A stretch of DNA of 64,000 nucleotides. Origin: Mustelus asterias (lineage: Eukaryota). The translations under genes and the position numbers were made by a program. The stretch spans positions 310,001 to 374,000 of the forward strand of contig NW_027590338.1 of NCBI RefSeq assembly GCF_964213995.1, read 5' to 3'. The notes below the pieces were generated by a model. It did not search any database and was not told where the DNA came from. It was given only the letters and a program-made list of their open reading frames with translations. Numbering within the stretch: the first letter of the stretch is position 1; each line of letters starts with the position of its first letter. Shown here in pieces: positions 266 through 61,260 of the stretch.

Positions 266-293
266 CTGCAGACAATGTATAATAAATGTCAAT

Positions 294-1020
294 TGTTAAG
301 GACCTGATATGAAATTCCAAGGTATTTTATGAAGTTAGCCTCGACCCTAACTTTGACATCTGATTTGGCATTAGGGTGAGTATAAGGTGTTTCAATCCAG
401 GTATGATTCAAGTGTCCCACTAGGAAGCTTTTGTCAAAACAAACATTATTTAACAACACAGTTCAAAAATAACCAAAAGAACTGGCATAAGTTTACCAAT
501 TAAAGTACTTAAATACGGCATCATGTAATTCTTAACAGCTAGTTAACAGATGCTTAAATGGGCACTAGATTTCCAGCCTTTTGACACTTCTGAAGAGTGA
601 TCCAGACAGACACCTGTCTGTTAATTCTCGTGCAGCAACTCCCAAACAGAAGAATCCCGGAGAAAAAGGCTTATTTCTTGGCGGATTTCAGTCTCCACTT
701 CAGACAGAGCAAGAGTTGCAGAGGAAGCAACCTCGACCTAAAGATCCCAAAAGCAAACTGCCTTGAGTTCTCTGTGAAATCTAGCTTCACTCAATCATAA
801 GATCTTACCTATCCATCAAGCTAATCAAGCCCCAGTTTGCAATATCCCAAGGGAAAACACAAAAGAACAGAATCTGCACTTGTTCAGACCAAAACAGACA
901 TTGCAGCAATTAAGATCAATTAGGCTGCTGCGTACAGACAGAGCAGTTCCGATCATAGAAAAACAAACTGCTACAAGAGATCCTGCGCAATCTATTTCAT
1001 AAAGATACAGTATCGTAACA
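294..1020. mobile_element. Solo LTR in the Cmu3-Cmu4 intron of the pseudogene
   Basis: Termini TGTTA...TAACA, with a 4-bp TSD CAAT at 290-293 and 1021-1024. The paralogous + strand intron (~60830-60868) shows the empty site. Confidence 0.85.
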
Positions 1021-1499
1021 CAATAAACTGGAAAATGCCGGATACAATGAAACCGCTGGTCAGATATGAGAGAAATGTGCTTTGTGTTGGATTTTAAAGG
1101 TTTCCATTTTTCATTTTGTGACCTGTCCAGTTTCCCAGCTCAGAACAGAGGTGAACAAAAATATTTTTCCTGAGCACTTAGCGGGTTGGTCTCGAAATAT
1201 TGATAAAGTTAACAATATCGATACAGGCCATTCAGTCCTGCTGGCCTGTGTTTGTGTTCAAGATTCACACTCGGTTCCTCCCACCTTATTCCATCTAAAA
1301 CCATCACCATGGCCGTCAATTCATTTTTCATTTTTCTATTTCTCATTCTCCCCTTAAAGTCTCCAGGCACAAAGTGCTTGGTTAGTGGAAATGCCAATCA
1401 GGATAAATCAGAAATACACTGAATAGTAAATATTGACCTTTGCATTTACACTCGAAATAGAAACAATGACTCACTAATCACTTCAACCTCTCCACCCAC

Positions 1500-1787
1500 C
1501 TGTTTTCTTGTGGATGGTATTTCTGAAAGGAGTCGGCAGATCCTGATGGCTCACCACGCAGTCAAACACAGCCCCACTCAGCCAGGCTTGTGTCGAGATG
1601 TTTAAGTTGCTGACCTCAGAATCTTCTCCAGACTGGTCGGCAATCTCTGATTTCAAATGCTTCTTCTCTTGGATCCAGGACACGTTGACTCCAGAAGGAG
1701 CATTAGAAATGACCCAGGCTAAGGTTGCGGTCGCCTTCAGTGGTGGTGGCAGTATCGTCACTGTGGATTCAAGGCACTGGGGAGGAT
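1500..1787 (-). pseudogene. IGHM: IgM Cmu3 exon (pseudogene)
   Basis: Acceptor cacag|atcc and donor acag|gtgg. Homologous to 60065-60373 but 21 nt shorter (in-frame 15- and 6-nt deletions); first canonical Cys changed to Trp. Confidence 0.92.
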
Positions 1788-2429
1788 CTGTGAATGAATA
1801 ATGAAAATCAACACAAGTTCCATCTTCAGCATCAGGACAGCAGTATTCAGCCTTCACTTTCTAAACAGAAATAAATCAACTTTAAGATATTAACCAACGA
1901 TACTGCCACCACCACTGAAGGCGACCGCAACCTTTGATACACAATGGAAAACCTGCTTGGTCTGTGAAAACTATTCTCATTGTTAAAGTAGTTCGGCACC
2001 GGTATCATTCTAATGAATCTGCATTGCAAATATACCATTTCTGATCTCAAGAAGGCAGTACTGACCGATGATTTATATATAATATGAAGACATTTTCCAA
2101 CATTTTACCCTGAAGTTATTACCTGTACAAGAGTGTCAGACGCCCACTGTCTCTCTCTCTCTCTCTAAATATTATCAACTGTCTGAGGATAAAGCTGATA
2201 CCAAGTCCACCTGTCCCACTTTTTGATATCAAACTAGAGGGAAATATCACTTGTTGTTATTTTAAAACCCTGAATGGTGACCAACTCTAAATATGGTTTT
2301 TACTTCAACATGAAACACAAACTATATGGCAGTTAAGCCAAATTTTTCTATGCTTGGTAATAATTTTAATTAATGCCTGATTTTGATTAACATCGGAGTG
2401 CAAAATGATATATTGTTTGTGTCTCATAC

Positions 2430-2735
2430 CCAGAGATCCGATGATTATTTGAATGTGGGTGAGCCCTTGATGAGTGACCTGGCAGGTATAGACCGCGTTG
2501 CTGAACCATTCCCCAGCGGAGACTGTCAGCCGACTGCTCGCTGAGAAGTTCCCGTTCACTTCCCAGGCGGGAGAGATGACAATTCCTGAATCCATGGGCT
2601 GTCCATTCTTCAGCCACTTCACCGTCATTGACTTTGGCTAGAAATCGATGATTGAACTGAGGATGGTTGCAAATTTCCTGCTTGTGATTTCTTCACTGGG
2701 ACTCACAGTGAGGATAACGATTGGCGGGATTTTCC
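2430..2735 (-). pseudogene. IGHM: IgM Cmu2 exon (pseudogene, premature stop)
   Basis: Homologous to 58843-59148. CAG->TAG stop at 2638-2640, canonical Cys->Ser, second Cys->Trp. Splice sites intact. Confidence 0.93.
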
Positions 2736-2799
2736 CTTCAAGAAATGCATGTTCAGCGTTCTTTTCATTAGTAAATTAATAGCAACAGTTCGAGTTCTT

Positions 2800-3820
2800 G
2801 TATCCTTAACAGGCTAGTTATGGACAACAGAATGATATCAATGGTTTGTTTGAGTGCAAAAAAAAGGTGACAAATGGAATTTAATCTGGAAAAATCCGAG
2901 TTGATATTTTTTGAGAGGGATAGCAAAGCAGAGGAGTGTTCAATAAACAGAAAGATAGAGAGGGATTGAGCAAGTGTGAGACTTTGCGTGCATGTCCACT
3001 GGTCAAAGGACATGAGAGGAACGGGGAGGATCAGGCTATTGAGTTGGATGTTCAGTGATGATCGCATTGAATGGCAGAGCTGGCTCAAAGGACCTTACAC
3101 CTGCTCAAAAATTCTTTATTTCTATGTTTCAATGTAGCACAGGAGGACAACATGGTCAAACGAATCATATTGAATGCTTTCATTCACTGGGCAAGTTATT
3201 GATGACAAAATCACGGGTATTTTGATAGAACTGTTTAAAATGCTGTTTAAGCCACAGTTTTGGCTTGTGCGCAGTTCTGGGGATCATATCGCAGGAAGGT
3301 CATAATTATTATGGAGAAATTCAGGATAGATTTACAAGAATGTTACTTGGGCTTGAAAATTGCAGATCTGATGAAAGTTCGGAGAGGCGAGGGTAATCTT
3401 CATTCTAACAGTGGATACTGATGGATGACCTAATTGAGGTGTACAAAATTATGAGGGACCTACACAGAGTGAACAGGAAATAATTCATTCCTCGAGTGGA
3501 GGGCTCAATTACTGGGGGTGGGGTAGGGGGTTAGATTTCCAACGATTGGTAGAAGGATTTGAGGGGACATGAGGAAACACATTTTCACCCAGATGATAGT
3601 GGACATCTGGAATTCACTTTCTAGGTTGGTGAATGAGGCTGAAATATGCAAATTATTAAAAGGTTCTTGTATCAATATGTAAAGTGTTATAACCGGCAAG
3701 GCCAATGACCTGGTGCTGGAAAATGGGATTGGAATGCACGGAGAGTTTACTTTTTGGCTGGTGAAAACACTATGGGCTGAACGGCCTCTATCTACACTGT
3801 AAATTGTCGATGATTCTGCT
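2800..3820 (+). mobile_element. Old degenerate CR1-type LINE fragments in the Cmu1-Cmu2 intron
   Basis: Decayed RT C-terminal motifs (caaatggaatttaatc, cagttctgg, gaggtgtacaaaattatgagg). Same position and relative orientation as 58020-58760. Confidence 0.7.
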
Positions 3821-3975
3821 GTTCAAATGCACTTTGATGTCAGTAGACAATAACCTCGAATTTGCAGGAACATAACTTTGCAGAGTCCCACAAATTTGTT
3901 ATAACCAAGACCCTATCAAACAACTTATAATTTAGGTTTAGCTGTTCTGTTTCTCACAGGTTCCACAATACTTAC

Positions 3976-4061
3976 ATTGCATTCCAATGCTCTTCACTAA
4001 GCCGAAGTGTCGAACCTCACAGTTGATTCTGCTGCATTCTCCCTCTGACTCGGTGATGGTT
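3976..4061 (-). pseudogene. IGHM: IgM Cmu1 exon, 3' part (split by a LINE)
   Basis: Reads TITESEGECSRINCEVRHFGLVKSIGMQ with donor caat|gtaag; matches 57805-57889. Confidence 0.9.
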
Positions 4062-5010
4062 TGTGATTTATATAAACGATCTGGAAGAAGGTGTAACTGG
4101 GGTGATCAGTAAGTTTGCAGACGACACGAAATTGGCTGGACTTGCAGATAGTGAGGAACATTGACAGAGGCTACAGATGGATATAGATAGGGTGGAAATT
4201 TGGGCAAAGAAATGGCAGATGAATGCGAAGTGATGCATTTTGGTAGAGCTAACGTAGGGGGAGCTATACGATAAATGACAGAACCATAAAGGGTTTAGAC
4301 ATGCAGAAGGACCTGGGTGTGCAAGTCCACAGATCCTTGAAGGTGACGTCACAGGTGGAGAAGGTGGTGAAGAAGGCATATGGCATGCTTGCCTTTCTAG
4401 GACGGGGCATAGAGTATAAAAGTTGGGGTCTGATGTTGCATATGTATAGAACGTTGGTTCGGCCGCATTTGGAATACTGCGCCCAGTTCTGGTCGCCACA
4501 CTACCAGAAGGACGTGGAGGCTTTGGAGAGAGTACAGAGGAGGTTTACCAGGATGTTGCCTGGTATGGAGGGGCTTAGTTATGAGGAGAGATTGGGTAAA
4601 CTGGGGTTGTTCTCACTGGAAAGACGGAGGATGAGGGAAGACCTAATAGAGGTGTATAAAATTATGAAAGGCATAGATAGGGTGAACGGTGGGAAGCTCT
4701 TTCCCAGGTCGGTGGTGACGTTCACGAGGGGTCATAGGTTCAAAGTGAGGGGGGTGGGGGGGAGGTTTAACACGGATATCAGAAGGACATATTTTACACA
4801 GAGGGTGGTGGGGGCCTCGAATGCTCTGCCAGGCACGGTGGTGGAGGCGGGCACACTGGGAACGTTTAAGACGTATCGAGATAGCCACATGAACGGAGTG
4901 GGAATGGAGGGATACCAAAGAATGGTCTAGTTTGGACCAGGGAGCGGCGCGGGCTTGGAAGGCCGAAGGGCCTGTTCCTGTACTGTATTGTTCTTTGTTC
5001 TTTGTTCTTT
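4062..5010 (+). mobile_element. 5'-truncated CR1 LINE inserted into the Cmu1 exon
   Basis: RT motifs (SKFADDTK, RPHLEYCAQFWSPH), (TTCTTTG)n tail, and GGTT duplicated at 4058-4061 and 5011-5014. Confidence 0.93.
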
Positions 5011-5224
5011 GGTTAACTGCTCAGGGTGGAGGTTCCCTTCGTGTTTCTCACTGACGGGTAAGTCTTAAATCCAGTGGTGATCGGCTGCCCATCTTTCTTC
5101 CAGATCAGTGTGGTGACGTCTGGGGAGTAGTCCATCGCCGAACAGCCGTAGGTGACGGAGCCGTCGGCGTTGTGTTGCCGACAGGAGGACACCAATATGT
5201 AGAGAGTGGACGGAGACGGTGCCG
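5011..5224 (-). pseudogene. IGHM: IgM Cmu1 exon, 5' part (4-nt deletion/frameshift, LINE-interrupted)
   Basis: Acceptor ttcccag|cggc. Reads [69 protein letters not shown]; agcagttaacc versus agcagccagttaacc in the intact copy. Confidence 0.93.
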
Positions 5225-6479
5225 CTGGGAAAGAATGGCCGATTGAACAAGTTAGACTCTGTTATTTGTGATCAAGATATCACACAACTCATAATGTGGA
5301 TACAGTTATAAAATTTATCCTTATATTTTCCAGTTAAAACTTGCATCCACATTTGATATTCTATAAATTCCATCATTTACGAACCAGCGCCTGTTTTGAA
5401 ATTCACACATTTTTCTCCTTCTCTACAACATTACAAAAATTGCATTCTGATGTCAACTGACATTGCTTTGGATTATAGTTGAAGAGAAGAGATTTTCCCC
5501 ATTATTTCCGCTACTATTTATTTCTCAACCAACAGCCATTTGTGATGAAGAAGTTGTCACTTCACTTAGATCATTGGAAGTTTGGAAATTGTCTGTGTTC
5601 AAACTGACTGATGCCCCTTCCTCACGCCACGTCACTCCCCCTCACTTCCCAAAACAAAGAATAGTGACTTTGCTTCAAAAACACCTTCGGTATAAAAAAG
5701 TATGAATGGTGTATGTCAGAGGGTTTGTGTGTGTGAGAGAGAGAGAACATGTGACAGCATGTATGAAAGTATGCGTGTGAGGGAGAGTATATATGTGAAA
5801 GGTGAAGTGTGTGAGAAAAATAATTTGTGCGCCAGAGACAGTGTGTGAGCAACATTGTGAGTGTGTGCGAGAGTGTTTGTGATTGTGTTTGTGAGTAAGG
5901 GAGCGTTTTAACAGAATTAAATACTTATTTGTTCATTTAATTTATCAAAATAAATTTAAGCCTCCTCGTTCTGAATTGTGCTCAAGTTCAGGTCACTCAC
6001 ATTCAATGGTTTTCTGATGCACAAAATGCTTCAACATAATTAATTTATTCAAATTAATATCTGCGCTGTTCAGAAAGATTCTTGTAATAAATTAACTTGC
6101 ATCATTTGATCCGATTAATGGAAGTTTTTTTTCATACGTTGATATCTCGATACGTTTTCATATATTCGTTGCTGATTCAGTTGACTTTGCGGGGCAAAGT
6201 CTCTCAGGTGTGACAAAGGACAAGTTACGATGTACAATGAAACTCACATTCCTCACCGGAAAAGCTTCTGTCTCCACATGCAGGGGTGGAATTCAACAGT
6301 AACCCATCTCTCCACTGCACTGAAAAAGTCCAGGTCAGTAACAGTACTGCTCCGATATAAAATAAATCTCCCTCTGCATTGTCCCATTACATATTCCCAG
6401 GAGAGGATTCAGTCCAGTTTAGGTATACATGCAGTAGCTATAAGCAATTCAGAGGCTGGGAATTCTGTGACAAATAATT

Positions 6480-7000
6480 GAACTCAGATCGCTCGAAGTC
6501 TTTTCATCTACAAGTCTACAAGTCTCAATAAGTAAAACTCAAGAAATTCGGCAATTTTCAGGACAAAGCAAACCGCAATATTGGCATCCCATCCACCACT
6601 TTAAACATCTACTTCCTCCACCACCGACGCACAGCAGTGCGTACCACATACAAGATGCACTGCAGCAATTCAGCAGTACTCCTTCGGCAGCACCTTCCAA
6701 TCCCGAAACCTCCATCACCTGGAAGGAAAAAGGCAGCAGATGCCTTGGAACACAACCACTTTCAAGCTCCCCTCCAAGCCACTCACCATCCAATGTATTT
6801 GGTCATACATTGGCTTTTTTTCATTGTCTCTGGGCCAACAGCCGGGAACTCCCTCCCTAATAGCGCCAGTGAGTATATCTACACCACATGGTTTGCAGCT
6901 ATACAAGGACTTTTCACATCAACAGTACATCATGGAATAATTAAGCACAGAAAACAAACATTGGCATAGCCAATGACTGTAAATTCCATGACGAGATTAA
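6480..7000 (+). mobile_element. Degenerate CR1/L2-group LINE 3' fragment
   Basis: Same family as the decayed fragments at 31300-33200, 36210-36950, 40360-41290 and 51330-51800 (taccacatacaagatgcactgcagcaa motif). Confidence 0.6.
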
Positions 7001-7814
7001 AAAATATAATGCAAACGAATTTCGCCCTGTACCCTACACAATTAACGAGGCAATTGAATGCTACAGCAAGGATTAGATTGGAGTAAACCTCTCATTGCAT
7101 TGCTTCATCGAACATTCAAAACCGAGAAATGACTGGTTAAAAAGTAACCAAGTTTGGCGGTTGTGTATTGTTCTTTCTGATGGTCATAATCTGGCTGAGG
7201 AGCCCAACTGAAAATGAGCAAAACTTTCACGTTCCTCACAGATACGTCAAAAACGTCAGTTAAATTTCACTCCCTGAAATACATGAGAGCGACCCAAAAG
7301 AGTTACAACCAGTCAGGAAGATTCCCGGCCCCAGCACAGTGACCACACGCACAGAAACAGAAGGCATGGCTGCAACAACCGAGTTCCCAGCAAATAGATC
7401 AGTTCAATCTGTTAATTTCATTCAAACTGTTTGATTCTGATTGATCAATGTTTAACTTACAACAGAATATCAATCGCGTCTTTTAAATTAGACTGAAATG
7501 CGTTTCAAAACTCTCTTCGACTTCGAACCATCTCTTACTTTCGGTCTCAAAGCTCGAAAACTGGGGAAAAGTGTAATTTCTCTGAATATGATCAGGTGAA
7601 TTACAACATATTCTGTGTAGTTTACTGTCTGCAATAGAGATTCAGCCACATGGTAAAAAGAAACAAATTAGGAATCATTGACATTGAAAACCAATGACCT
7701 GATTGATCTAATTTCCTAGTGAAATACAGGCAACAAAATAATCCGAGCATAACACCGTATCGAGCTGAGCACAGTAAGGAAATGCATTGTTTTCTGAATT
7801 CATTTTAGATACAA

Positions 7815-9010
7815 GTAAGAACGTAAGAATATAAGAACTACGAGCAGGAGAAGGCCGTCTGGCCCCTCGAGCCCGCTCCGCCATTAAATAAGATCATGGC
7901 TGACCTTTTCGTGGACTCAGCTCCACTTAACCGCCCGCTCACCATCACCCTTAATTCCCTTACTGTTCAAAAATATATCTATCCTTGCCTTAAAAAACAT
8001 TCAATGAGATATTCTCAACTGCTTCACTGGGCAGGGAATTCCACAGATTCACAACTCTTTCTGTGAAGAAGTTCCTCCTCAACTCAGTCCTTAATCTGCT
8101 CCTCCTTATTTTGAGGCCATGCCCCCTAGTTTTAGTGTCACACGCCAGTGGAAACAACTTCTCTGCTTCTATCTTATCTAATCCCTTCATAAGCTTATAT
8201 GTTTCTATAAGATCTCCCCTCATTCTTCTGAATTCCAATGAGTATAGCCCCAGTCTCCTCAATCTCTCCTCATACGCCAACCCTCCCAACTCTGAAATCA
8301 ACCTAGTGAATCTCCTCTGCACCCCCTCCAGTGCCAGTACACCCTTTCTCAAGTAAGGAGACCAAAACTGTACACAGTACTCCAGGTGTGGGCTCACCAG
8401 CACCCGATACAGCTGCAACATTACCTCGCTGTTTTTAAACTCCACCCCTCGAGCAATGAAGGACAAAATTCAATTTGCTGTCTTAATTACCTGCTGCACC
8501 TGCAAACCAATTTTTTGTGATTCATGCACAAGGACACCCTTTGCATAGCCGCATGCTGCAATTTTTTACCATTTAAATCATAGTCCATTTTGCTATTATT
8601 CCTACCAAAATGGATGGCCTCACATTTACCAGCATTGTACTCCATCTGCCGACCCTCGCCCGCTCACTTAGATTATCGGTATCCCTTCGCAGACTCTCAG
8701 CGTCCTCTGCACACATTGATCTGTCACTCATCTTAGTGTCATCTCCGAATTTTGACACACTACACTTGGTCCCCAACTCCAAATCATCTAAGTAAATCAT
8801 AAACAATTGCGTTCCCAATACTGATCCCTGAGGCACAGCAGTAGTCACTGATCGCCAACCAGAAAAACACCCATTTCCGCCCACTCTTTGCCTTTTGTTC
8901 GTTAACCAATCCTCTATCCATGCCACTACATTACCCGTAATACCGTGCACCTTAATCTTATGCAGCAGTCTTCGGTGCGGCACCTTGTCAAATGCCTTTT
9001 GAAAATCCAT
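7815..9010 (-). mobile_element. 5'-truncated CR1 LINE, frameshifted RT
   Basis: ORFs 8573-9010 (DFQKAFDKVPH, VPQGSVLG, KFGDDTK) and 7990-8466; taagaac tail at the left end. Confidence 0.92.
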
Positions 9011-9443
9011 TGTATAAAATCTTTAACATTTTGCACGCCAGTGTACAGCTCTGTTGCAGAAGGTAATTTATGTTGAACTAGTTACCACAAATATTATATT
9101 GCAAGTGATTGCTAATTATCTGTTAGTTCTCCTGTTGACTGATTTGTACACTATAATCAAATAGTTTTGAATAACTTAAAACTTATTTCTTCATGGAACT
9201 TTGTTAATTAATTGGGGCTTAATTAAACTTTAAAGAATGTTAAAAATGAACTTTGGATGGGAATATCCAGAAATGCATGGTACTTTTCCTTCAATTTACT
9301 CACATTTCAATATTTGAATTTTACTTTTACTTCAACTTCCCTATTTTAATCTCAACGTAACATTGATGAAACTTAACTTCCATCCATTCTCGGAATACAA
9401 TATATTAAATATGTTCAACTGAACTGACATCGCATTAACTGTC

Positions 9444-9765
9444 ATAGAACCATAAGGTCCCTCCAATGCAGAAGGAAGCCAGTCGACCCATCGAGCCTGC
9501 ATCGACAACAATCCTACCCAGGTCCTATTCCTGTAACACCACATTTACCCTGCTTTTCCCTCTGACACGAAGGGTCAATTTAGCATGGCCAATCAACCTA
9601 AACCGCACATCTTTGCACCGTGGGAGGAAACGGAAGCACCTTGAGGAAACACACACAGACACGGGGAGATGTGCAACTTCCACACAAACATTGAACCGAC
9701 GCCAAGATCGAGCCTGGGTAGTGTGAGGCAGCTGTGCTAACAACTGTGCCACCGTGCCACCCGTC
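9444..9765 (-). mobile_element. tRNA-derived SINE (HE1-like)
   Basis: Head ggtggcacggtggcacagttgttagcacagctgcctcac and a CR1-derived tail; same family as 30473-30828. Confidence 0.8.
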
Positions 9766-12077
9766 AATGCCTTGTAACATCATGTGCTAAAGCGAGACTC
9801 TCGAATTTATATTTGGTAACGGCACTGCGGCCTAAGACCAAAAACATTGCTTCCTCGATTTAATAATTAAGACCATCCCTGTAACTTAGTTATCGAACAT
9901 TGCGCTTAAATAAAGAATATCCGAATTTAACAGTGCAAATTAGGACGAGGACAATATATTCAATTCCTCTGCAACACTGTGACATGATGAACTAAATAAA
10001 TCGAGATTTTATTTAATAAGAATTAAGCATGGGGCTCAGGTATAATCACGCCTTCTATTTTATTATTCCACGTATAATTCTGCCCCGTGTGCAGCAGTTA
10101 TGGGGGAAGGGTTTTATTATTCAGTGCAATACAATGGTATTTTTAATTAAAATATTTGAATTTCAATTATTTACATGTCAACCACAAACCGTGTGCTGCT
10201 GGCAACTTCCTACAATTCAAATGAATTCATATGAACAATTCCTTCACAGTCTGCGACTTCCACCTCTCAGAAAACTGATTAAAATAAGAGAAATGATGAC
10301 TATCTTGTTATCCAACTACAAATGGCATTGCAGGAATTCTATGGTTGTGGCTGTGCAGAAATAATATAATAACCGGATCCACAAATTGTCAAACAGCAAT
10401 GCAAAACGTATATTTAAGTCAATTAATTCAAAATATCTTTCGAAACTGAACACGACTGTAGAACCAACATGCTATTATTAAAATAGTTTCAAAGAATCAT
10501 AGAATCCTACAGTGCAGAAGGAGGCCATTCGGCCCATCGAAACTGCACCGACATCAACCCCAGCTGGTTCCCCTGACACTAAGGGGCAATTTAGCATGGC
10601 CAATCCACCTAACACAATTAATCAGAAAGCATTTCCATTCCAGATACTTTGCGGTTACGTTAAGTGCACAACAGTCCATAATTGTGAAAAACGATTGATG
10701 ATTAATAAAATTAATATAAAATAATATTTGACTAATTTCGAGTGATATTTGCTGTTATAATTATTAAAATTATATCAATTTTAACTATCCAATTTGCAAC
10801 TTGATAAATAATTAGTTTGTGATTGCAGCAACCAATTATGTTCTGAATTAAATCATAATTTCGTTTAATCTCTAATTATCACTTGAATGTCTTTTTTTAA
10901 CGTCCCGTAAATTTTTATTATTTCTTAATTTCCGAAACCTGCCTGTTTTCGACCTTCAATCGTGCTTCAAAGTGTCTCAAATGCATAGACTATTTCCATT
11001 CAACCAGAAAACGTGTACGCTGTCAGTGTCACTGAGTCAAAACAATGTAGAAATGACCAACTTTTTCAGAAATGCTACTTCTTCAAAGTCACCCAGACAC
11101 ACCATCTCCTCGGCAGAAAAAAAACACCAAAACACATCACTGAAGGACTGAATCCAGTTTCATGGAGAAGCAGGTCAACTCTACATCGAACGGATTCAAA
11201 TATAGCATTGCAGGACATTTCTAATATCGAATCCAGAAAACCCACAAGCCGAGTATGAACTATTGAAGCAAATATGAGCCTCGAATAATGGCAATAACAT
11301 TGGGAGTAGGTGGAATGTGTCCAAGAAATTAATATTGAACCTTCGCTGGATTTCATTCATACTAGGTTATATTTCAAAGGTATTTCAAATATATTTAAAA
11401 AAAACAGCAGATGGTAAAACCTGCGGCCATCGCGGTTCAGCATTTCAGAAACGCCAAACTGTGGCTGCAAGAGCGAACTATGGTCTGAACTAGCGTCGTA
11501 AACCGTGAATTAGTTTATTCTGCAATTATCATATATTTATATATATTTAGCTGCACTGGCAGACTGTCTGGCTTCTGCCGACAATCATGCCCAAGTAGTT
11601 TTAAGCGGGTAGACTGAATTCAAGCACAATACGTGTACCTGTTCAATGGCACCGAGTTTAAACAATGCAGAAGCAATGCAGAAGCGCCAAACCGTCTCAC
11701 AAATCCTACTTAAAAGTCACCAGAAGCACAATCTGCTCAGCAGAAAAAAACACCAAATCATATCACTGAGGAAATGAAACAATTTTCATGAAGAAATTTC
11801 GCAATACTACAGACAAATTAAACAGAATCAAAGAGGAAACATTGCAACAAAGTCTGATTCCGAATCCATCAAATTCTCCTGTTCAGCGAGTGTATGAATA
11901 GCTTAACTAATCGGAAACATGAAATAATAGCGTCAGCATTGTGAGTAAGAAGAGGACGATCAACAAATGAACATTGAAACTCCAGCACACTTTGATAATC
12001 TTGGGTTATATTTCAAATACTTGTGCTGCAGGTTGTACCATCTGCAGCCATCAGATGCCATCAAGATTAAACTTCGT

Positions 12078-12290
12078 AACAGCGGGAGGGCGGGGGGGAG
12101 GGGACAGCGGGGGGGAGGGGGAAATAGCCGGGGGGGGGGCGGAAACAGCGAGGGGGGGGACAGCGGGGGGGGGGGGCGGAAACAGCGAGGGGGGGTGGGG
12201 ACAGCGCGGGGGGGGGGGGTGGAAACAGTGGGGGGGGGGGGGGGAAGAGCGGGGGAGGGAAAACAGCGGGGGGCGGGGAAACAGCGTGGG
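12078..12290 (+). repeat. G-run minisatellite, approx. (G)n-AAACAGC; G-quadruplex-prone
   Basis: Many runs of 4-12 G separated by (a/g)acagc-like spacers. Confidence 0.9.
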
Positions 12291-46289: not shown

Positions 46290-46335
46290 ATGAGGTCGGC
46301 GATTTGTCTCAGTTTGTTGCTGACTTTCCTATCCG
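46290..46335 (+). CDS. IGHV: IgH leader exon MRSAICLSLLLTFLS(G)
   Basis: 46-nt phase-1 exon with donor g|gtgagt; hydrophobic signal peptide. Confidence 0.93.
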
Positions 46336-46469
46336 GTGAGTAGTTTTTTTTTAATTGTCCAAGTCTCCCACAGTTACTGTCTCAGTCTTAGTCTATCTCT
46401 GTAATATTCCAGAGTCAAAAATCATTACACCGGGATTAATCCTCGGGATTTTTGACATATGTTTTACAG

Positions 46470-46774
46470 GTGTCCAATCGGAGGTTGTGTTGACTCAGCC
46501 AGAGGCAGAGATCGGGCGTCCCGGAGGCTCCCTGACACTGACCTGTAAAACCAGCGGCTTCGATCTCGGCAGCCACTGGATGAACTGGATCCGACAAGTT
46601 CCCGGACAGGGGCTGCAGTTTCTGCTGTGGTACGATAGTTCATCAAACAACAACTACGCCCCAGCAATTAAAGATCGATTTACTGCGTCCAAAGACACTT
46701 CAAACAACATCTTCTCTTTGGAGATGACGAGGCTGAAGACCGAAGACACCGCCATCTATTACTGTGCAAGAGAC
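46470..46774 (+). CDS. IGHV: Germline IgM VH segment, open frame
   Basis: Acceptor ttacag|gt. Reads [48 protein letters not shown]...[11 protein letters not shown]. Confidence 0.97.
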
Positions 46775-46813
46775 CACAGCGAGAGGAACCAGGGATGGAC
46801 CCGAACAAGAACA
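46775..46813 (+). other. VH 23-RSS
   Basis: CACAGCG + 23 nt + ACAAGAACA. Confidence 0.92.
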
Positions 46814-47186
46814 GCTCGAGAGGGAATTCAGCAACTTCCATCATAACCTGACGGTCAGGATCTGTTTTAAATGTAATATTAAGGACAGTGATCAGAACCA
46901 AAACACAAACCGCTTCTGACAAACCTAACATAAAGGAAATTAAACATTTAACCGAGCAAACTCACAGACATAATGGGATGAGCTTTTCACTCTGCTTATA
47001 TTTACTGTTAACAGTTTCTGCAGTTACAGACCTGGATGATATTGCTCGTTTTAATATTTCTGAGACTTCGAGGAGATGTTTCCAGATTGTACTTTGTAAA
47101 CTGTTGCATAAATTGTAAATTATATCAAAAATTCTGGTCTATTTGTAGTGAATATTGAGCGGCAGTACTGAACAGAGACTGAGTGC

Positions 47187-47214
47187 AGTTTTTGTGCGGG
47201 TGTGTGTCACTGTG
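47187..47214 (-). other. D 5' 12-RSS
   Basis: AGTTTTTGT + 12 nt + CACTGTG. Confidence 0.95.
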
Positions 47215-47225
47215 ATACAGCAGTG
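47215..47225 (+). CDS. IGHD: Single DH segment ATACAGCAGTG (open in all frames)
   Basis: 11 nt between two 12-RSS. Confidence 0.93.
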
Positions 47226-47253
47226 CACAGCAGTTACTGTCAATACAAAAACC
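47226..47253 (+). other. D 3' 12-RSS
   Basis: CACAGCA + 12 nt + ACAAAAACC. Confidence 0.95.
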
Positions 47254-47580
47254 CCTCAGCACTAATTGACCGAGGATGGGGCAGTGCTCTGTTTTACAAT
47301 CCACCATTATTTACAGCACTGTATTATTTATGTCTAGCACTGCTCAAATAGCCAGAATTAACATGGAAAATTTACGATAACTATTCAATTATCATTTGGT
47401 GTTTCCAAAAACATATTCATCTGATGCTCTGTGAATTATAAAACATTAGGGTCATTTATGAAGAGCGAACGGTATCCACAAATACAATTAAAATTTCATT
47501 AAAAATGCAGTGATTTACTTTCCCTCTGGCTTGTGGATATTTAAAATAATGGTGGCTTTTTGTCTATTTTGTGCAGGGAT

Positions 47581-47619
47581 GGTTAGTGTCAGATCCAGCC
47601 CAGGGAATGTGACAGCGTG
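47581..47619 (-). other. JH 23-RSS
   Basis: GGTTAGTGT + 23 nt + CAGCGTG. Confidence 0.85.
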
Positions 47620-47667
47620 ACTACATCGCATACTGGGGCCAAGGGACCATGGTGACGGTGACTGCAG
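47620..47667 (+). CDS. IGHJ: JH segment YIAYWGQGTMVTVTA
   Basis: WGxG motif and donor cag|gtaag. Confidence 0.96.
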
Positions 47668-47949
47668 GTAAGAACCATGCATTTATTTAGTAACTATTTT
47701 ACTTGAGATTTTGTTTTATATTTTTATCGAATTTAATAATTCATTCGTTCACAGATTGAGATTTTTTTTTACAATGTTTCAGGTGATTCTGCTGAAAATG
47801 TGTTGTATAATTCCGCTGTTTATTGGCAAAAGGTGACGCTGAAGGATTCAGTCTCTGGTTGTTGTCATTTGGTGTTTATCTGCTGAGGACATTGTGTGGC
47901 TGGGTTACTTTAAATGCCGAAATTCTGTTAAACAGTTCGGCGTTTCTGC

Positions 47950-49085
47950 AATGTTTGATCTCGGTGACATCTAGTAGCTGCGATTTGTACCATCTGCTGC
48001 ACAAGTGTTTGAAATCTAACCCAATATTAATTAAATGTGTTAAAGTTTCTGTATTAATTTAGTGATCATGTTCCGCTTACTCACAATGCTGGTGTGGTTA
48101 TGACTTATTTCTGTCCATTTTAATTCTTAATTAGTATGGTGATGGTCGGATTGGTTGGATTTTAAATTGAGATTTTCTGTCAATGTTGCATTTGATTCTT
48201 TTGAAAGTGTTTGGAGAATTGATCTGCTTCTGCATGAAGCGGGGTTCAGTCCCTCAGTGATGTGTTTCTCTGGTCAGGAGATTGTGTGTCTGGGGGACTT
48301 TGAACAAGCAACATTTGTGAAACGATTTGGTGTTTCTGCATTGTTTAAACTCGGTGACACTGAATTGTTACCCGCTTTGTTATTTAATACAAAGAATCTG
48401 CGGGTTTGCAACTGCTTGACGCATGACTGCAGGCAGAAATCAGGCCGGCTTTATTGTATTTGTATTTTTTTTAATCTTAAGTGATAATTGCAGGTTAAAC
48501 TAAACCACCGTTTACGCCGCTCGTTCAGAACATAGTTTGTCACGGCATTCACAATTTGGGATACATGCAATGTTTAATCTCGGTGGCATCTGATGGCTGG
48601 AGCTTTTACCATCGAAATGTTTAAATACGTTTGAAATCTTTTGGAAATAAAATGTGGCAAAGTTTCAATATTATTTTATTGGAAATATTGGAACTCCTCA
48701 CAATGTTATTGCTATTATCCCAGATTCCTTTTTAGTTTAACAATCCATATATTTGGCGAAGAGCTGGTGTGCCGGATTGGATATTGAGATTTTCTTGCAA
48801 TGTTATATTTGATTCTGTTGAATATAGAATTGAGCTGCTTCTCCCTGAAACGGGGTTCAGTTACTCAGTGATGTGTTTTCATGCTTTTCTGCTGAGGAGA
48901 TTGTGTGTCTGGGTGACTTTGATTGTTTAAAATGTGTGAAATGGTTTGGCGTTTCTGAATTCTTTCTGCATTGTTTAAATTCGGTGACACTGAGTGGTTA
49001 CAAGCTTTCTGGTTGAATGCAAACATTGTGCGCTTTTGAAAATCCTGGAAGCACGGTTGTAGGAGAAAACAGGCAGGTTTCGGAA
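47950..49085 (+). repeat. Diverged ~610-bp tandem duplication in the J-proximal intron
   Basis: 47952 vs 48571 and 48241 vs 48852 share sequence; both units are also present in the minus copy (10930-12075). Confidence 0.7.
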
Positions 49086-52000
49086 AATAATAAAATAAAG
49101 ATATGAGAGCATTCCATACACTTTAACTGATGCTTACTGTGTAAAATAAATCATGACTTATAACCCTCATTGAGAACGCCATTCATTGCGGCTATCACAA
49201 ATTACTTAATCAGCAAGTTTTTAAATAGGAGTAAAATAAATAAAATTTGAACATTTATTCCCAGTAATATAGCAAACTCACCAAGGATTATTTTATATTA
49301 ACATCATTAATCATTAATCGGCTTTCACAATTCTGCTGTGCTTTGAACATGATTAACATGGCCGGAAAAGTTTTTATTCTGCAAATGCTTTGTGATTGTG
49401 CCTGAAAGTATTTCATTGAAAACATGCTGATTCCACAGCAGCGCTCAGCATATCAATATATTTTTAATTAATCATTATATCCCAGATTAAGTTTGCATTC
49501 ACTTAAATAGGAGTTTTGCATTGCAGTTTGGCAATTTATGTATTCGGTTATTACATTATTTCATTGCAGGCGTAGCCACATTATTTCTCAAAGTAATAGG
49601 TAGTTGGATAAAGAGATAATTAATCACTACTCTAATCGTAAACAGCTTTCTGAGATGTGGAATGCGCTGTCAGTCAATTAATTGTTCATTTGATTATGTT
49701 TGATTTGTAGTAAGGTATCCAGAAACTGGCAAGAGATTGACAAGTAAATGCTTCAAATTAAACAGGTTAATTTATGTTACAAAAGGTTAATATTTGCTCT
49801 GCAATTAATAATGGCATCCTGTTTCCCATTACTGCTGCAGACAGGATATCATTATACGGATAACAAATGGCTGAAGAGAATAATTGATTCTATCTGAGCC
49901 TTATGTTTAATTCTTATTGAATATTAAATGAAGAACAAAATGTCGTCTTTTTTTGTTCATCATGTTTCAGTGTTGCAGAGGAGTTGAATAAATTGTGCTC
50001 ATTGTGTTTTGCACTGTTTAATTGGGATCTTCTTTAATTAAACAATATGATCAATAATTAAATTACAGGGAAGGCCTGAAGTATTAAATCTAGGAAGCAA
50101 TTTTATAGATCATAAACTGCCAGGCTGTTACAGTATATATTCGCACAGAAAAATTCAGTTTAACACTTTTGTAGGTTAAAAGAAAGCATTTAGAGTAAAA
50201 GTAAAATATTAAGATGCAATTAGATGTAAGTAGAAGTATTTTAGGTATCTGACTGTTTGCATCCAGTAATTTGAAGTTTATTGTTTAACATTATTTAAGA
50301 TTTAATTGACACTTAATTATTTAAAGTTCCAGACAAAAGCAGGATTTGAATCAGTGAAAGCTATTATTATTATAGAATACAAATCAGCCAACAGGAGTAC
50401 TAACTGACAATTAACAATAACCTAAAATATAAATATAATTAATTCAACATAAGTGAACTACTACAATATTTAATTGGATCAAAAATGAATTCAGACAACA
50501 ATGCATTTCTTTACTCAGCTCTGCTCCGCTCGATACAGTGTTTTGCCTCGATGATTTTGTTGCTTTCATTTAATTAAAGAATTCGATCAAATCACCGAAT
50601 AATTTTCAGTGTAAATGTTTGCTGGTTTGTTTAATTCTGTGACACAGCATTTCTGTTATGTAAAAAAAAAGTCTATCCTGAGTACATTTAATGTACTCAT
50701 TTTCATCGAAATTATATTTTTGCCCTGTTTTCGATATTTGAGGCAGACAGGGATACATTGCTGAAAGTTATAGGGTGTTTTGAAATTAATATCAGTTTAA
50801 TTTAAAAGAGGTTTTTGAATTGTTGTTGTTGTAGGTTGACCATTGTTCAATTAGAATAAATCAGTTTCAATGTGCTTCACAGATTGAACAAATCTATCTG
50901 CTGGGAACTCGATTGTTACACCGTTTGTTTCTGTTCTGTTTCTGTGCGCGTGGTTACCGTGTTGGGACCAATAATTTTTCTGACTGCTTGTAAATCTTCT
51001 GATTCCTTCTCCTGTATCTTCGGGGCGAAAGTTTGGCTTATTTCTGCAATCAACTTGTGCGGTGAGGAATGTGACAGTTTGACTTGATTTTTTTACTAGG
51101 CGTCTCAGAAATGAGATCCCTGACCCAGAATGTGACCGTCGGACAAAGCAGAAACGTCAGAAAGAGTGTGGAAGGAGATTTGTTTTTTTTTTAACCAGTG
51201 ATGTACCAACCTTGGGAATTTTCGATGAACAAATACAAAGGGAGATATAACCTATTGCACTCCGTATTATAGCAGACTCTTTCCAAATTAATAGGAGATT
51301 TAGACCGTCAATTCCGGTTGTGTCTTACTTTTAGTCCATGAATGGGATTTTAGAGTCGCTGGCTAGGGCAAAATTTGTTATCTGTCCCTAATTGTCATTT
51401 CAAAAAGTGCTGATATGAAGTATCCTTGAATAACTGCAGACCATGTGGTGTCGATATGCCTACAGTGCCATTCGGGATGAAGTTCCAGGATATTAACCCA
51501 GCGACTGTGAAGGAACGGCGATATTGTTTCACGTCAGGATGTTGTGTGTTTTGGAGGGGAGCTTGCAAGATGTAGTTTGGACAGTGTATTCTATGGAGTC
51601 TTGGTGATTTGCTGCAACGCATCATATGTGTGATACACCCTGCTGTCACTGCTTGTTGGTGATGGAGGAAGTGGATGGGGTGAATGTCGGGGTGGGAAAG
51701 TTTCCTGGGAAGCGACGACTTTCTTTAGATTTTCTCAACAGTCGCTCATTGTGGCAAGTGGAAATTATTCAATTATAGACCTGAATTGTGAATGGTTTAA
51801 ATGTTTCTCCAACCGTTAGCCCGCGTGCCATATTCAGTTCATTTACTAAACACCCACCCACCCCCACCCCACACACTATGAGAATTGCTGAGAGTGCGTG
51901 TGGAATGTGAGGGTGAAGATGATTATTAAGACTGAGAGACCCAGATAGAAAATTACACGTACCACACTCTCACACACATAAATACATACATCTGCACTCA

Positions 52001-56435: not shown

Positions 56436-57101
56436 ACATGTGCCTCAGACATCCTCACACACACACCACTCACAAAGTTTCTCTCTTTCACGCACACACT
56501 CATACAGAAGAACTCTCTCTACCTCGTCTGTCTCTCTCTCTCTCTCGCAAACACACCCTATCTCACATATATTCTCACACGTTCTCTATCTGTCTCTCTC
56601 ATTCTGTCACCAATAATCTGCAACAAACTCACTGTCATGTGCAACTACATTATCTCTCTCTGTCACATACACACATTCTCTGTCTCTCATACACCCTTAG
56701 TCACACCCACTCTCTCCTCTTACACACAGACACCGTGTCTCACACATTTACAAACTTAGGATCTCACACACACATGTCTCTCACAGAAACACCACACAGA
56801 AAATCTCTCCCTCTCCCACTCACACAATAACACCCTATCTCATACACATTCTCTCACATGCTCAATCTCTCTCTCATTCTCATCCCAACATCTATCACAC
56901 ACTCACTGTCACGCGCAGGTAAATTAACTCTCTCTCTTTCACACACGGACTCTATCCTGAACACTCACACATACCGTGTTTTTTCTCTCTCACTGTATCT
57001 TAGACACACTCTCTCTCTCACACACGTATACTACATAACCAACACATATCTCTTTCTCATACACATAAAGCCACACTCGTATATACACATACACACACAC
57101 A

Positions 57102-57330
57102 GACGGGGGAAAGGCAGAGAGCCGGGGGAGAGAGCAGAGAGCTGGGCGAAAGGGCAAATAACCTGGGGAAAGGGCGAAGAGCCCGGGAAAGTGTAGACAG
57201 CTGGGGGGAAATGTTTAGAGCCGGGACAGAGGGCAGGGAGCTGGGGGAAAGGGCAAAGCACCCGGAGAAAGGGTAGAGACCCAGGGAAGAGGGTAGGGAG
57301 CTGGGACAGAGGGCAGAGAGCCGGGGATAA
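57102..57330 (+). repeat. G-rich 20-bp tandem repeat (~11.5 units, consensus GAGCTGGGGGAAAGGGCAGA), switch-region-like
   Basis: 20-bp period read directly; AGCT at 57140, 57199, 57239 and 57299; ends 260 bp 5' of Cmu1. Confidence 0.88.
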
Positions 57331-57589
57331 GTTCATAATTCTAGTCAAATCTTGACGTAGAAACTTAGAAAATCGAAGCAGGAGCCGGCTGTTCAGCCCT
57401 TTGAGCCTGTCTGCCATTCACTTTGACCATGGCTCATCAATATCCTGATCCCGCCGACCACCCATATCCCTTGATCTCATTAGCCCCAAGAGCAATATCT
57501 AATATAGAACCATATTTGTATAAACATGTTTGATTAATTAATAAAAGCAAATAAGAGTCTAACTTGTTCAATCGACTATTCATTCCCAG

Positions 57590-57889
57590 CGACACCATCT
57601 CCTCCGACTCTCTACAGCCTGGTCTCCTCCTGTCATCAACACAACTCCGACGGTTCCGTCACCTATGGCTGTTTGGCGATGGACTACTCTCCAGATGTCT
57701 CCAAACTGACCTGGAAGAAAAATGGGCTGCCGATCACCACTGGGTTTAAGACATACCCATCAGTGAGAAACACGAAGGGAACCTACACACTGAGCAGCCA
57801 GTTAACCATCACCGAGTCAGAGGGAGACTGCAGCAAAATTGACTGTGAGGTTCGACACAGCGGCTCAGACAAAAGCATTGGAATGCAAT
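57590..57889 (+). CDS. IGHM: IgM Cmu1 exon
   Basis: 300 nt, phase 1; [15 protein letters not shown]...[10 protein letters not shown]...TWKK...IDCEVRH; AG/GT intact. Confidence 0.96.
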
Positions 57890-58019
57890 GTAAGTGTGTG
57901 GAACCTGGGCAAGAGAGGGACGCTGTGATTGAACTATATCAGGCCTTAGTTATAACTGATTTGTAGCACTCTGAAAATTTTGAATTATGCAAATTATGAC
58001 TGAAAAGTTGCTGAGAACC

Positions 58020-58760
58020 AAAGACCAACAGAAATGTAACTGTGCAGAATGAGGCCATTTAGCCCATCATGTCTGGCCAAAAGGGAGAACAAATACACTA
58101 GCCAGACATTTTAAGCCTATTTTCCAGCCCTTGATCCGTAGCTTTGCAGGCGAAAGCATTTGAGATGGAGACCCAGATACCTTTTAAATGACCATGCTCC
58201 CTGGTAATTGAGCCTTCCACTTGGGGAGTGAAATTTTCAGCCTACATCCCTTATAATTTTGTGAACCACAATTACGTCACGCCTCAGCCTCTTCTTTTTC
58301 TGAGGAGAACAATCCCTGCCTGTCCAATCTCTCCTCATCGCTGCAATTCTCAGCCCCGGAAACATTCTTGTAAACCTCATCTCTCTCCAGAGTCATCACG
58401 TCATTCCTGCAATGTGGTGACCAGAACTGTACAGCAAACTCCAACCGTGGCCTAACTGGCATTTTATACAGCTCCATCATTGCATCCCTGTTTTGGAACT
58501 CAATATCTCACATAATGGAGGAACTAACCCACATGATTTTCTGATCAACTTGCAGCTGTCCTAGCATCTACAAGACCTGTGGAAATGCATTCCAAGGTCT
58601 CGCATTTCCACAATCCCTCTCAACCTTCCAGTTTATTGACTATCCCCTTGCTTTGTTTGACCTCCCCAAATGCATTGCGTGACACTTCTGACGGTTGAAT
58701 TCGATTCGCCAATTCCCTGCCCATTCAACCAAACCACGGATATCATTCTCAAGTCGGCAG
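58020..58760 (-). mobile_element. Old degenerate CR1 in the Cmu1-Cmu2 intron
   Basis: ORF 58277-58480 (RPRLEFAVQFWSPH). Confidence 0.75.
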
Positions 58761-58842
58761 CTCTCCTGCTAAAATATAAGAACTAATTTTAATTGTTATC
58801 AATTGATTCGGCAAGTAGCGTCTAAACATGTGTTTGTTTAAG

Positions 58843-59148
58843 GCGACATCCCCCCAACCGTTATCCTTACCGTGAGTTCCAGTGACGAAATCACAAGCAG
58901 GAAATTTGCAACCATCGTCTGTTCGATCATCGATTTCCAGCCAAAGTCTATGACGGTGAAGTGGCTGAAGAATGGCCAACACATGGATTCAGGAATTGTC
59001 ACCTCTTCCGCCTGTGAAGTGAATGGGAACTTCTCGGCGAGCAGTCGGCTGATAGTCTCCGCTCGGGAATGGTTCAGCAAAGCAGTCTATACCTGCCAGG
59101 TCACTCATCAAGGATTCACTCAGAGTCAGAACATCAGCGGATCTCTGG
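58843..59148 (+). CDS. IGHM: IgM Cmu2 exon
   Basis: 306 nt; [12 protein letters not shown]...[21 protein letters not shown]...YTCQVTH; AG/GT intact. Confidence 0.96.
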
Positions 59149-60064
59149 GTAAGAGACTCAAACCGAGGATAAAATATATCATTTCAATGTTAATCGAAAT
59201 TAGGGATCTATTAAAGTTAGTACAAAGATAGAACAACTTCGGATTTACTGTCATGTGGTTTGCTGCATTAGGACAGTGGCTCATTGAGAATTTCATCACA
59301 ACAGCAATTTTTGTTATTCCTTCATGAGATGTGTATTTATTTCCCATCCCAGAGGGCACTTAAGTGTCAACCACATTGCTGTGGACCTGGAGTCACATGC
59401 ATGCCAGGTCAGATAAAGACAGCAGATTTACTTTTCTAAAGGGCATTCGTGAACCAGGTGGGTTTTTACAACAATGGCTTCATGATGATCATTTGACTTT
59501 TAATCATAGATTTTTATTAAAGTCAAATTTCACCATCTGCAGTGGTGAGATTCGAATATGTGTCCCCAGAGTCATGCCCTAGGTTACAAGCCCATTGACA
59601 ACACCACCATGCCACCGACTCACCTGGAAATCGTGTTCACTTCCATTTTGAAGTAATATAGTGAGCGAGGTGGCCTTGATGTCAGCTTTTTCCTGAGACA
59701 GCTGGTAAGATTTGGAGAGACAGTCGGTGTCGGACTGTTTCACAGGTCACAGTATAGGGGTAAAATATTGGAAAGTACATCCACCCTACTGATAAGCCAA
59801 CGGTCAGTACTTTTTTCCTGAGTTCAGGATGGTGTATTTGTTTAGGAATGCTGCAATCCTGATTCATGAGAATGATACTGTTGCTAAAATACTTTAATAA
59901 AAAGAATAGTTTCACAGAGCAGGCTGGTTTTCCATCCTCCATCGAAGTTGAAAGGTGATAGTTAGACGTTGATATCTCGAAGGCGACTACGTCTCCTTCA
60001 GGCTGAAGACTGCTGTCCTGCTTCTGAAAGAGAACTAGGGTGGATTTTCATTTGTCATTCACAG

Positions 60065-60373
60065 GTCCTTCCCAGTGCCCTGATACCACAGTGACGATAC
60101 AGCCACCACCAATAGAACAGGTCTTAATGGAGGCTACCGTGACCTTAACCTGCATCGTTTCTAATGCTCCTTATGGAGTCAACGTGTCCTGGATCCGAGA
60201 CAGGAAGTATTTGAAATCAGAGATTGCCGAAAAGCCTGGAGCGGATCCTGACAGCGTGGTCAGCAACTTAAACATCTCGACACAAGCCTGGCTGAGTGCG
60301 GCTGTGTTTGACTGCGTGGTGAGCCATCAGGATCTGCCGACTCCGTTAAGAAAATCCATCCACAAGGAAACAG
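60065..60373 (+). CDS. IGHM: IgM Cmu3 exon
   Basis: 309 nt; [20 protein letters not shown]...VSW...[13 protein letters not shown]; AG/GT intact. Confidence 0.96.
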
Positions 60374-60868
60374 GTGAGCTGAGAGATTGAAGCAATAAAT
60401 GCGTCACTGTGTCTATTTCCAGTGTCAGTGGACTGGTCAATATTCAGTATTCAGTGCATTAATGGTGTCTCCTGATTGGAAACTCCACTAACTAAAGACT
60501 CTGGTCCTGCAGATATTTTTACGGGGAGATTTGATGTGTTGATGAATTAAAAGTGAACTGAAGGCGATGTTATTGGGTTTAGATCGAATAAGGAGGGAGG
60601 AGCCTGATGTGGAGCATGAAAACCAATAAAAAAGCAGATCAGTTGGGCCGAAGAGCCTGATTCAGTGCTGTAAACTTTCTGAAACTTTCCAGTCCAACCC
60701 GCTGAGTTATTTGAGAAAACAATTGTGTTCACCTCTCCTCCAAGCTGGAAGTCAAAAATAGAAACATTTAAAATCGAAAGCGAAGCACATTTTTCTGATA
60801 CCTAGCCAGCAGTTTCATTGTCTCCAGAATTCTCCAGTTTATTGACATTTATTGTACATTTTCTGCAG

Positions 60869-61260
60869 ATCCAAATCCGCGGGAACCGTTCGTCTCTGTC
60901 CTCTTGCCCTCGGCAGAAGAAGTCTCCGCTCAGAGATTCGTCTCCCTCAGCTGCTTAGTGAGACGTTTCTCCCCTCGAGAGATCTTCGTCAAGTGGACCG
61001 TCAACGACAAGCCGGTGAATCCTGGGAACTATAAGAACACCGAGGTGGTCGCGGAGAGCGGGAATAGCTCCTTCTTCATGTACAGCCTGTTATCCATTGC
61101 AGCAGAGGAATGGTCCAGCGGTGCTTCTTATTCCTGTGTGGTGGGACATGAAGCCATCCCCTTGAAGATCATCAACAGAACAGTTGACAAATCCAGCGGT
61201 AAACCCAGTTTTGTGAACATTTCCCTTGCACTGATGGACACCGTTAATTCATGTCAATGA
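60869..61260 (+). CDS. IGHM: IgM Cmu4 exon plus secretory tailpiece
   Basis: LSCLV...VKW...[11 protein letters not shown], tail [20 protein letters not shown] with an N-glycosylation sequon and penultimate Cys. Internal donor for the TM form agcg|gtaaa at 61198/61199. Confidence 0.97.

Follow-up and report, generated by a model that had tools for sequence, protein, structure and literature searches.

A G-rich 20-bp tandem repeat upstream of Cmu1 is shared by a large clade of shark IgM clusters and is most likely an inherited minisatellite

The window analyzed here is a 64,000-nucleotide stretch of Mustelus asterias DNA. Its forward strand carries an IgM cluster in which all exon frames are open. 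A leader, VH (46481-46775, with a 23-RSS), one D (47215-47225, with a 12-RSS on both sides), and JH (47620-47667) occupy positions 46290-47667. They are followed by a JH-Cmu1 intron of 9.9 kb, the Cmu1 exon (57590-57891; 89% to Triakis scyllium IgM P0008), and Cmu2, Cmu3, and Cmu4 with a secretory tail in open frames (58845-61257). The single D with its two 12-bp RSSs may be a germline-joined D-D. At 47200-47260, the V-D spacer is like that on contig C124, and the D-J spacer is like those of clusters with a longer V-to-J distance. At another locus (L203:8652-8990; contig C166, ~442.8 kb), V runs directly into a J motif, as expected of a VDJ joined in the germline. The assembly contains three copies of the window gene that are ~100% identical (C306, C127, and C667), either haplotypes or the result of a very recent duplication.

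The reverse strand carries an IgM pseudogene (1-12072) with no V or J in the window. Its Cmu1 is split by a LINE fragment (3974-5225, minus strand), its Cmu2 contains a stop, and its Cmu3 contains small deletions. A 21-bp minisatellite at 12084-12290, more G-clustered than the repeat described below (G4Hunter 2.26), sits where the pseudogene stops being homologous to the JH flank; it is C-rich on the pseudogene's sense strand.

The feature under study is a worn, G-rich 20-bp minisatellite of 11 units on the forward strand (57102-57330), what remains, after truncation, of an array that measures 0.5-1.1 kb in related IgM clusters. A sequence-only reading of the window had described it as about 11.5 tandem 20-mers built on an AGCT-bearing unit, forming a miniature switch-region-like element. 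The repeat is real: TRF returned a 20-bp period at 57104-57326 with 11.2 copies and 65% matches. Counting bore out the G-rich strand, the GGG runs, and the four AGCT of that reading, with 108 G in 229 bases (47%) and 20 runs of GGG or longer on the sense strand. The mean G4Hunter score was 0.97, the best 25-nt window scored 1.88, and the array was the second-highest 200-nt window of the 64 kb. The AGCT unit did not hold. All four AGCT (57140, 57199, 57239, and 57299, within 57140-57302) lie in the same unit slot, which reads AGCC in the consensus and AGCT in 4 of the 11 units. Four AGCT in 229 bases exceeded the 1.1 expected under a dinucleotide shuffle (p=0.01), and three further places in the 64-kb window also reach four. 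WGCW motifs were not above chance (6 vs 3.7 expected, p=0.12), and Xenopus-type stem-loops in the array found no support (z -0.46). The 260 bases reported between the array end (57330) and the Cmu1 exon start (57590) were confirmed.

The array is not an assembly artefact, because contigs from two sequencing runs matched it without difference. One contig from run X1, possibly the window's own sample, spanned 56800-57493 with zero differences, and a contig from another sample (X4) spanned 56800-57287 with zero differences, covering the 5' end of the array. A further run, X17, contributed no additional evidence on the array.

When the shark's genome was searched for the array and for Cmu1, the matches co-located. 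The array was present in all of the first 30 Cmu1 loci extracted and, once 9.6 kb of intron was included, in 40/40 loci, where it mostly lay between -1.6 and -1.0 kb from Cmu1. It was always G-rich on the sense strand, and no copy was reversed. A second sample was chosen by Cmu4 and was hence blind to the intron. Of its 19 clusters, 17 had full arrays; L189 retained 3 units, and the truncated pseudogene L172 had none. In the subfamily of L197 and L199, the array was displaced to -2.2 to -2.8 kb, not absent. The 77 loci were then collapsed to 42 distinct clusters, with short extracts replaced by longer ones and L189 merged into a near-identical cluster and left uncounted. With presence defined as at least 4 units, 40 of the 42 carried the array, so the absence from other clusters that the sequence-only reading had named as a refutation was not what we found. 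Both array-free clusters were pseudogenes in which much more than the array was gone. In a Cmu1 tree, the 42 clusters formed one clade (support 98/99), apart from two divergent array-free IgM genes. The array is a family trait of one large IgM clade, not a peculiarity of the window gene. A tract unique to this gene, or a chance tract, was rejected by the co-location with Cmu1 in other IgM loci.

Across the clade, array length was 229 bp in the window, mostly 0.5-0.8 kb, and at most ~1.1 kb. Unit number ranged from 3 to 40, and the distance to the acceptor from 260 bp to 2.2 kb. Two clusters with open exons have lost most of the array, L189 with ~3 units and L191 with ~4-6. The arrays closest to that of the window were in L115 (85.6%) and L116 (82.5%). 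The array also extends to other organisms: contigs from organism D (run X11) and organism C (run X7), two of four runs, joined array units to the same flanks, while runs X15 and X5 had no contig bridging array and flank among the contigs listed. Organisms C and D are close relatives, with intron pieces ~80-95% alike.

In other clusters, the order was CA-rich tract, TCAC-rich tract, lead-in, array, ~700 bp of flank, SINE-like fragment, and acceptor. The window gene departs from this order on both sides of the array. A CA/TC-rich low-complexity tract (56440-57101, forward strand) adjoins the array directly, and the lead-in and TCAC-rich tract are absent. At the 3' junction (57324-57331, forward strand), the array is joined ~262 bp before Cmu1, the usual ~700 bp flank is gone, and a short GGA microhomology is present. 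Between junction and exon lies a very abundant interspersed-repeat fragment (57358-57510, no strand assigned), a depth peak which we take to be SINE-like. It is common to most main-subfamily clusters and is a passenger with the same inheritance pattern as the array. The window copy is the remainder left by germline deletions on both sides. These deletions, in this one gene, produced the "miniature" size and the close spacing to the exon noted earlier. The idea that the window gene is a switch-like germline chimera, with its joint at the 3' end of the array, was unsupported, as array and flank both fit L115/L116. A near-identical copy of the window gene on C667 has two extra repeat units (13 vs 11).

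The reverse-strand pseudogene was explained in the same way. It has no array in the 14.8 kb upstream of its Cmu1, in agreement with the sequence-only reading, which had contrasted the two genes. A deletion that took in the TCAC tract and some of the flank removed its array and upstream intron. The contrast between the two genes is thus a loss in the pseudogene and not a gain in the forward gene.

To place the array among antigen-receptor genes, IgW and IgNAR genes were found through a search for the C1-set family (150 of 793 candidates scored), and isotype labels were assigned here from domain layout and identity. No array was found in three IgW-type genes (C185), one IgNAR-type gene, the two divergent IgM genes, two light-chain regions, or one TCR-beta region. 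The best sense-strand 300-bp G fraction was 0.33-0.38 in 10 of 11 control loci versus 0.50-0.52 in IgM arrays; the 11th locus reached 0.45, downstream of an IgW C1. An array confined to IgM cannot serve IgW-IgM switching.

The constant strand and the nearness to the Cmu1 acceptor could also fit a role unrelated to switching, in which the G-rich tract would act on IgM transcription or pre-mRNA, by pausing or as a splicing enhancer for the long JH-Cmu1 intron. G-runs are intronic splicing elements in other systems. Such a role is very improbable. The distance to the acceptor varies over the range given above, the divergent IgM, IgW, and IgNAR genes checked manage without the array, and the open-exon clusters L189 and L191 retain just 3-6 units.

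An 18-mer of the IgM type had 89 exact matches in 3.68 Gb. For 75 of them, a known Cmu1 followed on the same strand within 4 kb, extraction of the loci placed 8 more in IgM, 1 was in an IgM intron ended by a contig edge, and 3 were upstream of a Cmu4 match on C2355 and were counted without its Cmu1. The remaining 2 were non-Ig. IgM introns thus held 87/89, a ratio that is partly circular because the probe was chosen from IgM arrays. The second refuting outcome named by the sequence-only reading, a repeat common genome-wide without Ig enrichment, was not borne out; the enrichment before C1 exons it had proposed to look for held for IgM but not for IgW, with none in the three genes.

The undecayed unit behaved differently. 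It had 833 matches, and all 100 of those listed sit in one non-Ig array. Long homogeneous arrays of 0.4 to ~5 kb, with 91-96% unit match and unit counts that reach more than 100, were found in at least 14 non-Ig contigs (C27, C35, C40, C45, C99, C194, C336, C406, C494, C845, C876, C1224, C1461, and C2267). No Ig exon lay beside them in the 9-30 kb checked, and the idea that they are S regions of IgW or IgNAR was rejected on this ground. Rfam gave no match in 12 loci flanking long arrays, and a motif scan found no zinc-finger exon near them. Among the matches listed, in contig order, none fell on C1-C26. The 20-mer is neither a dispersed genome-wide repeat nor Ig-specific. The long arrays lie inside a young, repeat-rich duplicated unit, which shares a genome compartment with IgM clusters; it is 35 kb from one on C194, and fragments of it follow Cmu1 on C325. 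A transfer of the array into IgM within this non-Ig unit found no support: in a comparison of one non-Ig copy with IgM introns, the matches listed contained no flank homology beyond low-complexity or interspersed repeats.

We take the array to belong to the G-rich VNTR minisatellites of vertebrate genomes. Like these, it has 20-bp head-to-tail units, strong strand asymmetry, and variable copy number, and it exists as young homogeneous and old decayed arrays at unrelated loci (the non-Ig contigs above), with 21- and 23-mer variants. Unlike a typical VNTR, a single old array sits fixed within the intron of an antibody gene and has been multiplied by the cluster organization, which is why it looks Ig-specific. 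A 21-bp minisatellite of 126 copies at the start of C121 (L219:3-2632) and a 23-bp minisatellite (L218:9200-9506) share the core of the 20-mer.

Motif densities were calculated from 18 distinct arrays and compared with the rest of the introns. AGCT occurred at 5.6/kb versus 2.0/kb (17/kb in the window array), and WGCW at 14.2/kb versus 13.9/kb. The single-strand AID motifs WRCY and RGYW were at 31/kb versus 21.5/kb and 44/kb versus 17.9/kb, respectively, and GGG runs at 69/kb versus 5.4/kb. The arrays were 46-48% G, with 1-7 AGCT per array and one WRC motif per unit. The unit slot read AGCCGG 109 times, AGCCAG 91 times, and AGCTGG 35 times in the 18 arrays, counts that are not independent because units share ancestors. 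Outside the main lineage, AGCTGG was about equal to AGCCAG or more frequent (window 4:0, L115 6:2, L129 4:2). Seven young non-Ig arrays contained zero AGCT. The G of the unit's CpG was the least conserved of the 20 positions (51% G, 37% A), and the C of the CpG had become T in 16%. CpG decay is clear only for G-to-A, because the preceding C also changed to T in 16%. AGCT, one letter from AGCC, appears to be one of several decay products and not favored overall; it probably arose by a C-to-T change at the unit's CpG.

A sense-strand R-loop-forming stretch was predicted at the array in 39/42 clusters by a heuristic that is our own rough version of a published rule. Transcription of the gene is predicted to give rise to R-loops and G4 at the array, and incidental access of AID is therefore possible.

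These properties were compared with known switch systems. Mouse S-mu is described in the available part of PMC2193334 as (GAGCT)nGGGGT, n being about three, over 3,000 bp, which by our own arithmetic (three per 20 bp) gives ~150 AGCT/kb. A working synthetic switch zone that supports R-loops and switching consists of nine 80-bp repeats with four AGCT each and has 46% G, according to the text available of PMC4245955. It holds 36 AGCT in total (50/kb), compared with 1-7 in each shark array. Like mammalian S-mu, the shark array is a tandem repeat located in the intron that precedes the first CH exon (40/42 clusters), with a G-rich, G-clustered sense strand. Unlike S-mu, it measures 0.2-1.1 kb and not one to several kb, has an AGCT density far below that of S-mu with WGCW unenriched, carries AGCT as a decay variant and not as the unit, and has no known promoter or I exon. 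Also unlike mammalian switch regions, no counterpart was found before the other isotypes checked, and the unit occurs outside Ig loci. The Xenopus S-mu region offers a likeness of another kind, a repetitive intronic element before Cmu in an ectotherm, as far as PMC4279169 and PMC5485518 describe it in the parts available. The array resembles a switch region in geometry and G-skew but is not one, since it fell short in the tests of hotspot density, length, and coverage of other isotypes. Of the convergent or incipient acceptor switch element proposed earlier, the tie to IgM, the position, and the R-loop-favoring strand stood, while hotspot density, isotypes, retention, and the non-Ig arrays spoke against it.

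Three reviews, in the parts available, describe shark Ig loci as lacking switch regions and cryptic promoters (PMC4279169, PMC8201067, and PMC4588147). Inter-cluster switching nevertheless exists in sharks and accompanies AID expression (PMC4279169, PMC4588147), and IgW-IgM switching in both directions is reported (PMC4279169, available sections). This switching uses the same type of locus, and within the IgM clade every donor and every acceptor would carry the array. The portion of PMC2435157 available to us contained nothing on intron repeats. No description of such an array was found in the literature by title and abstract, which is weak evidence, as primary shark-switching papers or their supplements may describe intron repeats.

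On this background, the array might be a weak, co-opted break site. VDJ transcription would form an R-loop or G4, AID would act at AGC or AGCT, and either microhomology or the homology between the arrays of the two clusters would join the VDJ to the Cmu of another IgM cluster; beyond the sequence features, every step is one that we infer. The S-mu-like position and strand in 40/42 clusters with none reversed, the R-loop stretch predicted in 39/42, the G content with one WRC per unit, and the presence in organisms C and D are consistent with such a site, and intronic junctions would escape cDNA. Each array has few AGCT beside the 36 of the synthetic zone or the density of S-mu, however, and WGCW is unenriched. 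In nurse sharks, switch junctions lie mostly in JH. The array is ~9 kb from JH, and promoter distance lowers R-loop formation and switching (PMC4245955, available part). No promoter or sterile transcript is known in the available text of PMC4588147, and the IgW genes checked have no array although switching between IgW and IgM is reported (PMC4279169, as above). The coupling of shark inter-cluster switching to AID expression (PMC4279169, PMC4588147, same parts) favors the idea, as do mice without S-mu, whose residual junctions, in the part of PMC2193334 available, cluster around a G-rich stretch of 200-300 bp that contains isolated GAGCT and keep a weak facilitator in play. We regard the break site as unlikely. 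It is likewise improbable that the array is an overlooked proto-switch region, whose R-loops would focus AID breaks and allow VDJ exons to pass from one IgM cluster to another by way of junctions in introns, which cDNA studies miss.

Retention and divergence were examined along the intron end. Retention per bin was 33-37/40 clusters in the array, 30-38/40 in the 3' flank, and 33-36/40 in the adjacent C-rich tract. In 29 like-structured clusters, the mean p-distance was 0.081 in the array versus 0.057 in the 3' flank, and the gap share was 0.12 versus 0.004. The array is kept no better than the neighboring intron and diverges faster. True switch regions also diverge fast, and fast divergence is therefore compatible with function.

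Inferred template switches between paralogues reached 45/kb in the array, compared with 46/kb over the final 260 bp and 27-39/kb in other intron parts. With a looser switch penalty, the array was highest at 71/kb, a figure inflated by gaps, versus 43-64/kb in other parts. The inferred exchanges extend over the intron end as a whole, and any excess in the array is modest and may be caused by alignment gaps. The distance correlation across the array was low (rho 0.19), and adjacent non-array blocks gave rho 0.33. Four-gamete incompatibility was high along the whole intron end, with no peak at the array. Paralogous IgM clusters (L081-L120, L171-L189) were strongly mosaic; those on C107 and C166, for instance, were 85% alike in the 5' intron and 98-99% near Cmu1. 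The mosaicism points to frequent germline exchange between clusters.

These data bear on a further alternative, that the array is a germline fragile site without somatic role, which would drive deletions and exchange and help to shuffle V-side and C-side halves during evolution. Deletions end inside the array in the window gene (on both sides) and in L189, and L191 is reduced. Unit numbers vary from 19 to 40 and differ between near-identical copies of the window gene, and the mosaic clusters and the low correlation across the array would also fit. However, neither incompatibility nor inferred switches peak at the array, both being high throughout the end of the intron; adjacent non-array blocks also correlate poorly; and a chimeric 3' junction in the window gene is unsupported, because the array fits the L115/L116 lineage and so does the flank behind it. 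We consider a fragile site quite unlikely.

The window gene itself may be mosaic. Its 5' intron side (46290-51400) was 75-80% like all clusters compared, which were 84-99% alike among themselves, and its Cmu1 side (57330-59150) resembled the main family at 81-90%. Of 101 candidates, 40 were scored, and none of these was a close paralogue of the 5' half.

The most probable explanation, which we hold with fair confidence, is that the array is an old G-rich minisatellite spread passively by IgM cluster duplication, with no dedicated role in switching. A single minisatellite gain would have occurred in the ancestor of the main IgM clade, duplication of whole clusters would have carried the array along passively, and since then units would have decayed and deletions trimmed or removed the array. 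The tie between array and IgM would follow from one gain inherited through cluster duplication. This account builds on the observed position, strand, single clade, unit decay, deletions, and young non-Ig arrays, from which we infer the single gain and the neutrality. Several observations count against it: the S-mu-like position, strand, and G content with the R-loops predicted in 39/42; the occurrence of both complete losses in pseudogenes and the sharing of the array with two other organisms; and the rise of WRCY, RGYW, and AGCT over the rest of the introns, with some lineages leaning to AGCTGG. By analogy, the residual junctions at a short G-rich stretch in S-mu-less mice (PMC2193334, available part) may count against it as well.

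The array is real and wider than the sequence-only reading saw. At the S-mu position of ~40 distinct IgM clusters, it is a mapped target for testing the reviews' statement that sharks have no switch regions. Activity of the array, if it existed, would mean that switch-like DNA is older than the tetrapods or has two separate origins. More likely, on the sequence evidence, cluster duplication makes a passenger repeat resemble a conserved element.

Other features of the shared compartment were observed. A young duplicated unit of ~20 kb or more (L041-L060, L215-L218; C845, C45, C40, C27, and others), with copies 93-99% alike, is packed with different minisatellites and long homogeneous 20-mer arrays and contains no Ig exon and no Rfam match. 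On C325 (L212:1226-3490), fragments of the non-Ig unit lie just after Cmu1, with no Cmu2-4 in the 6 kb downstream. Next to the non-Ig array on C194 (L043:3627-9558) are long open frames that resemble retroviral pol and env.
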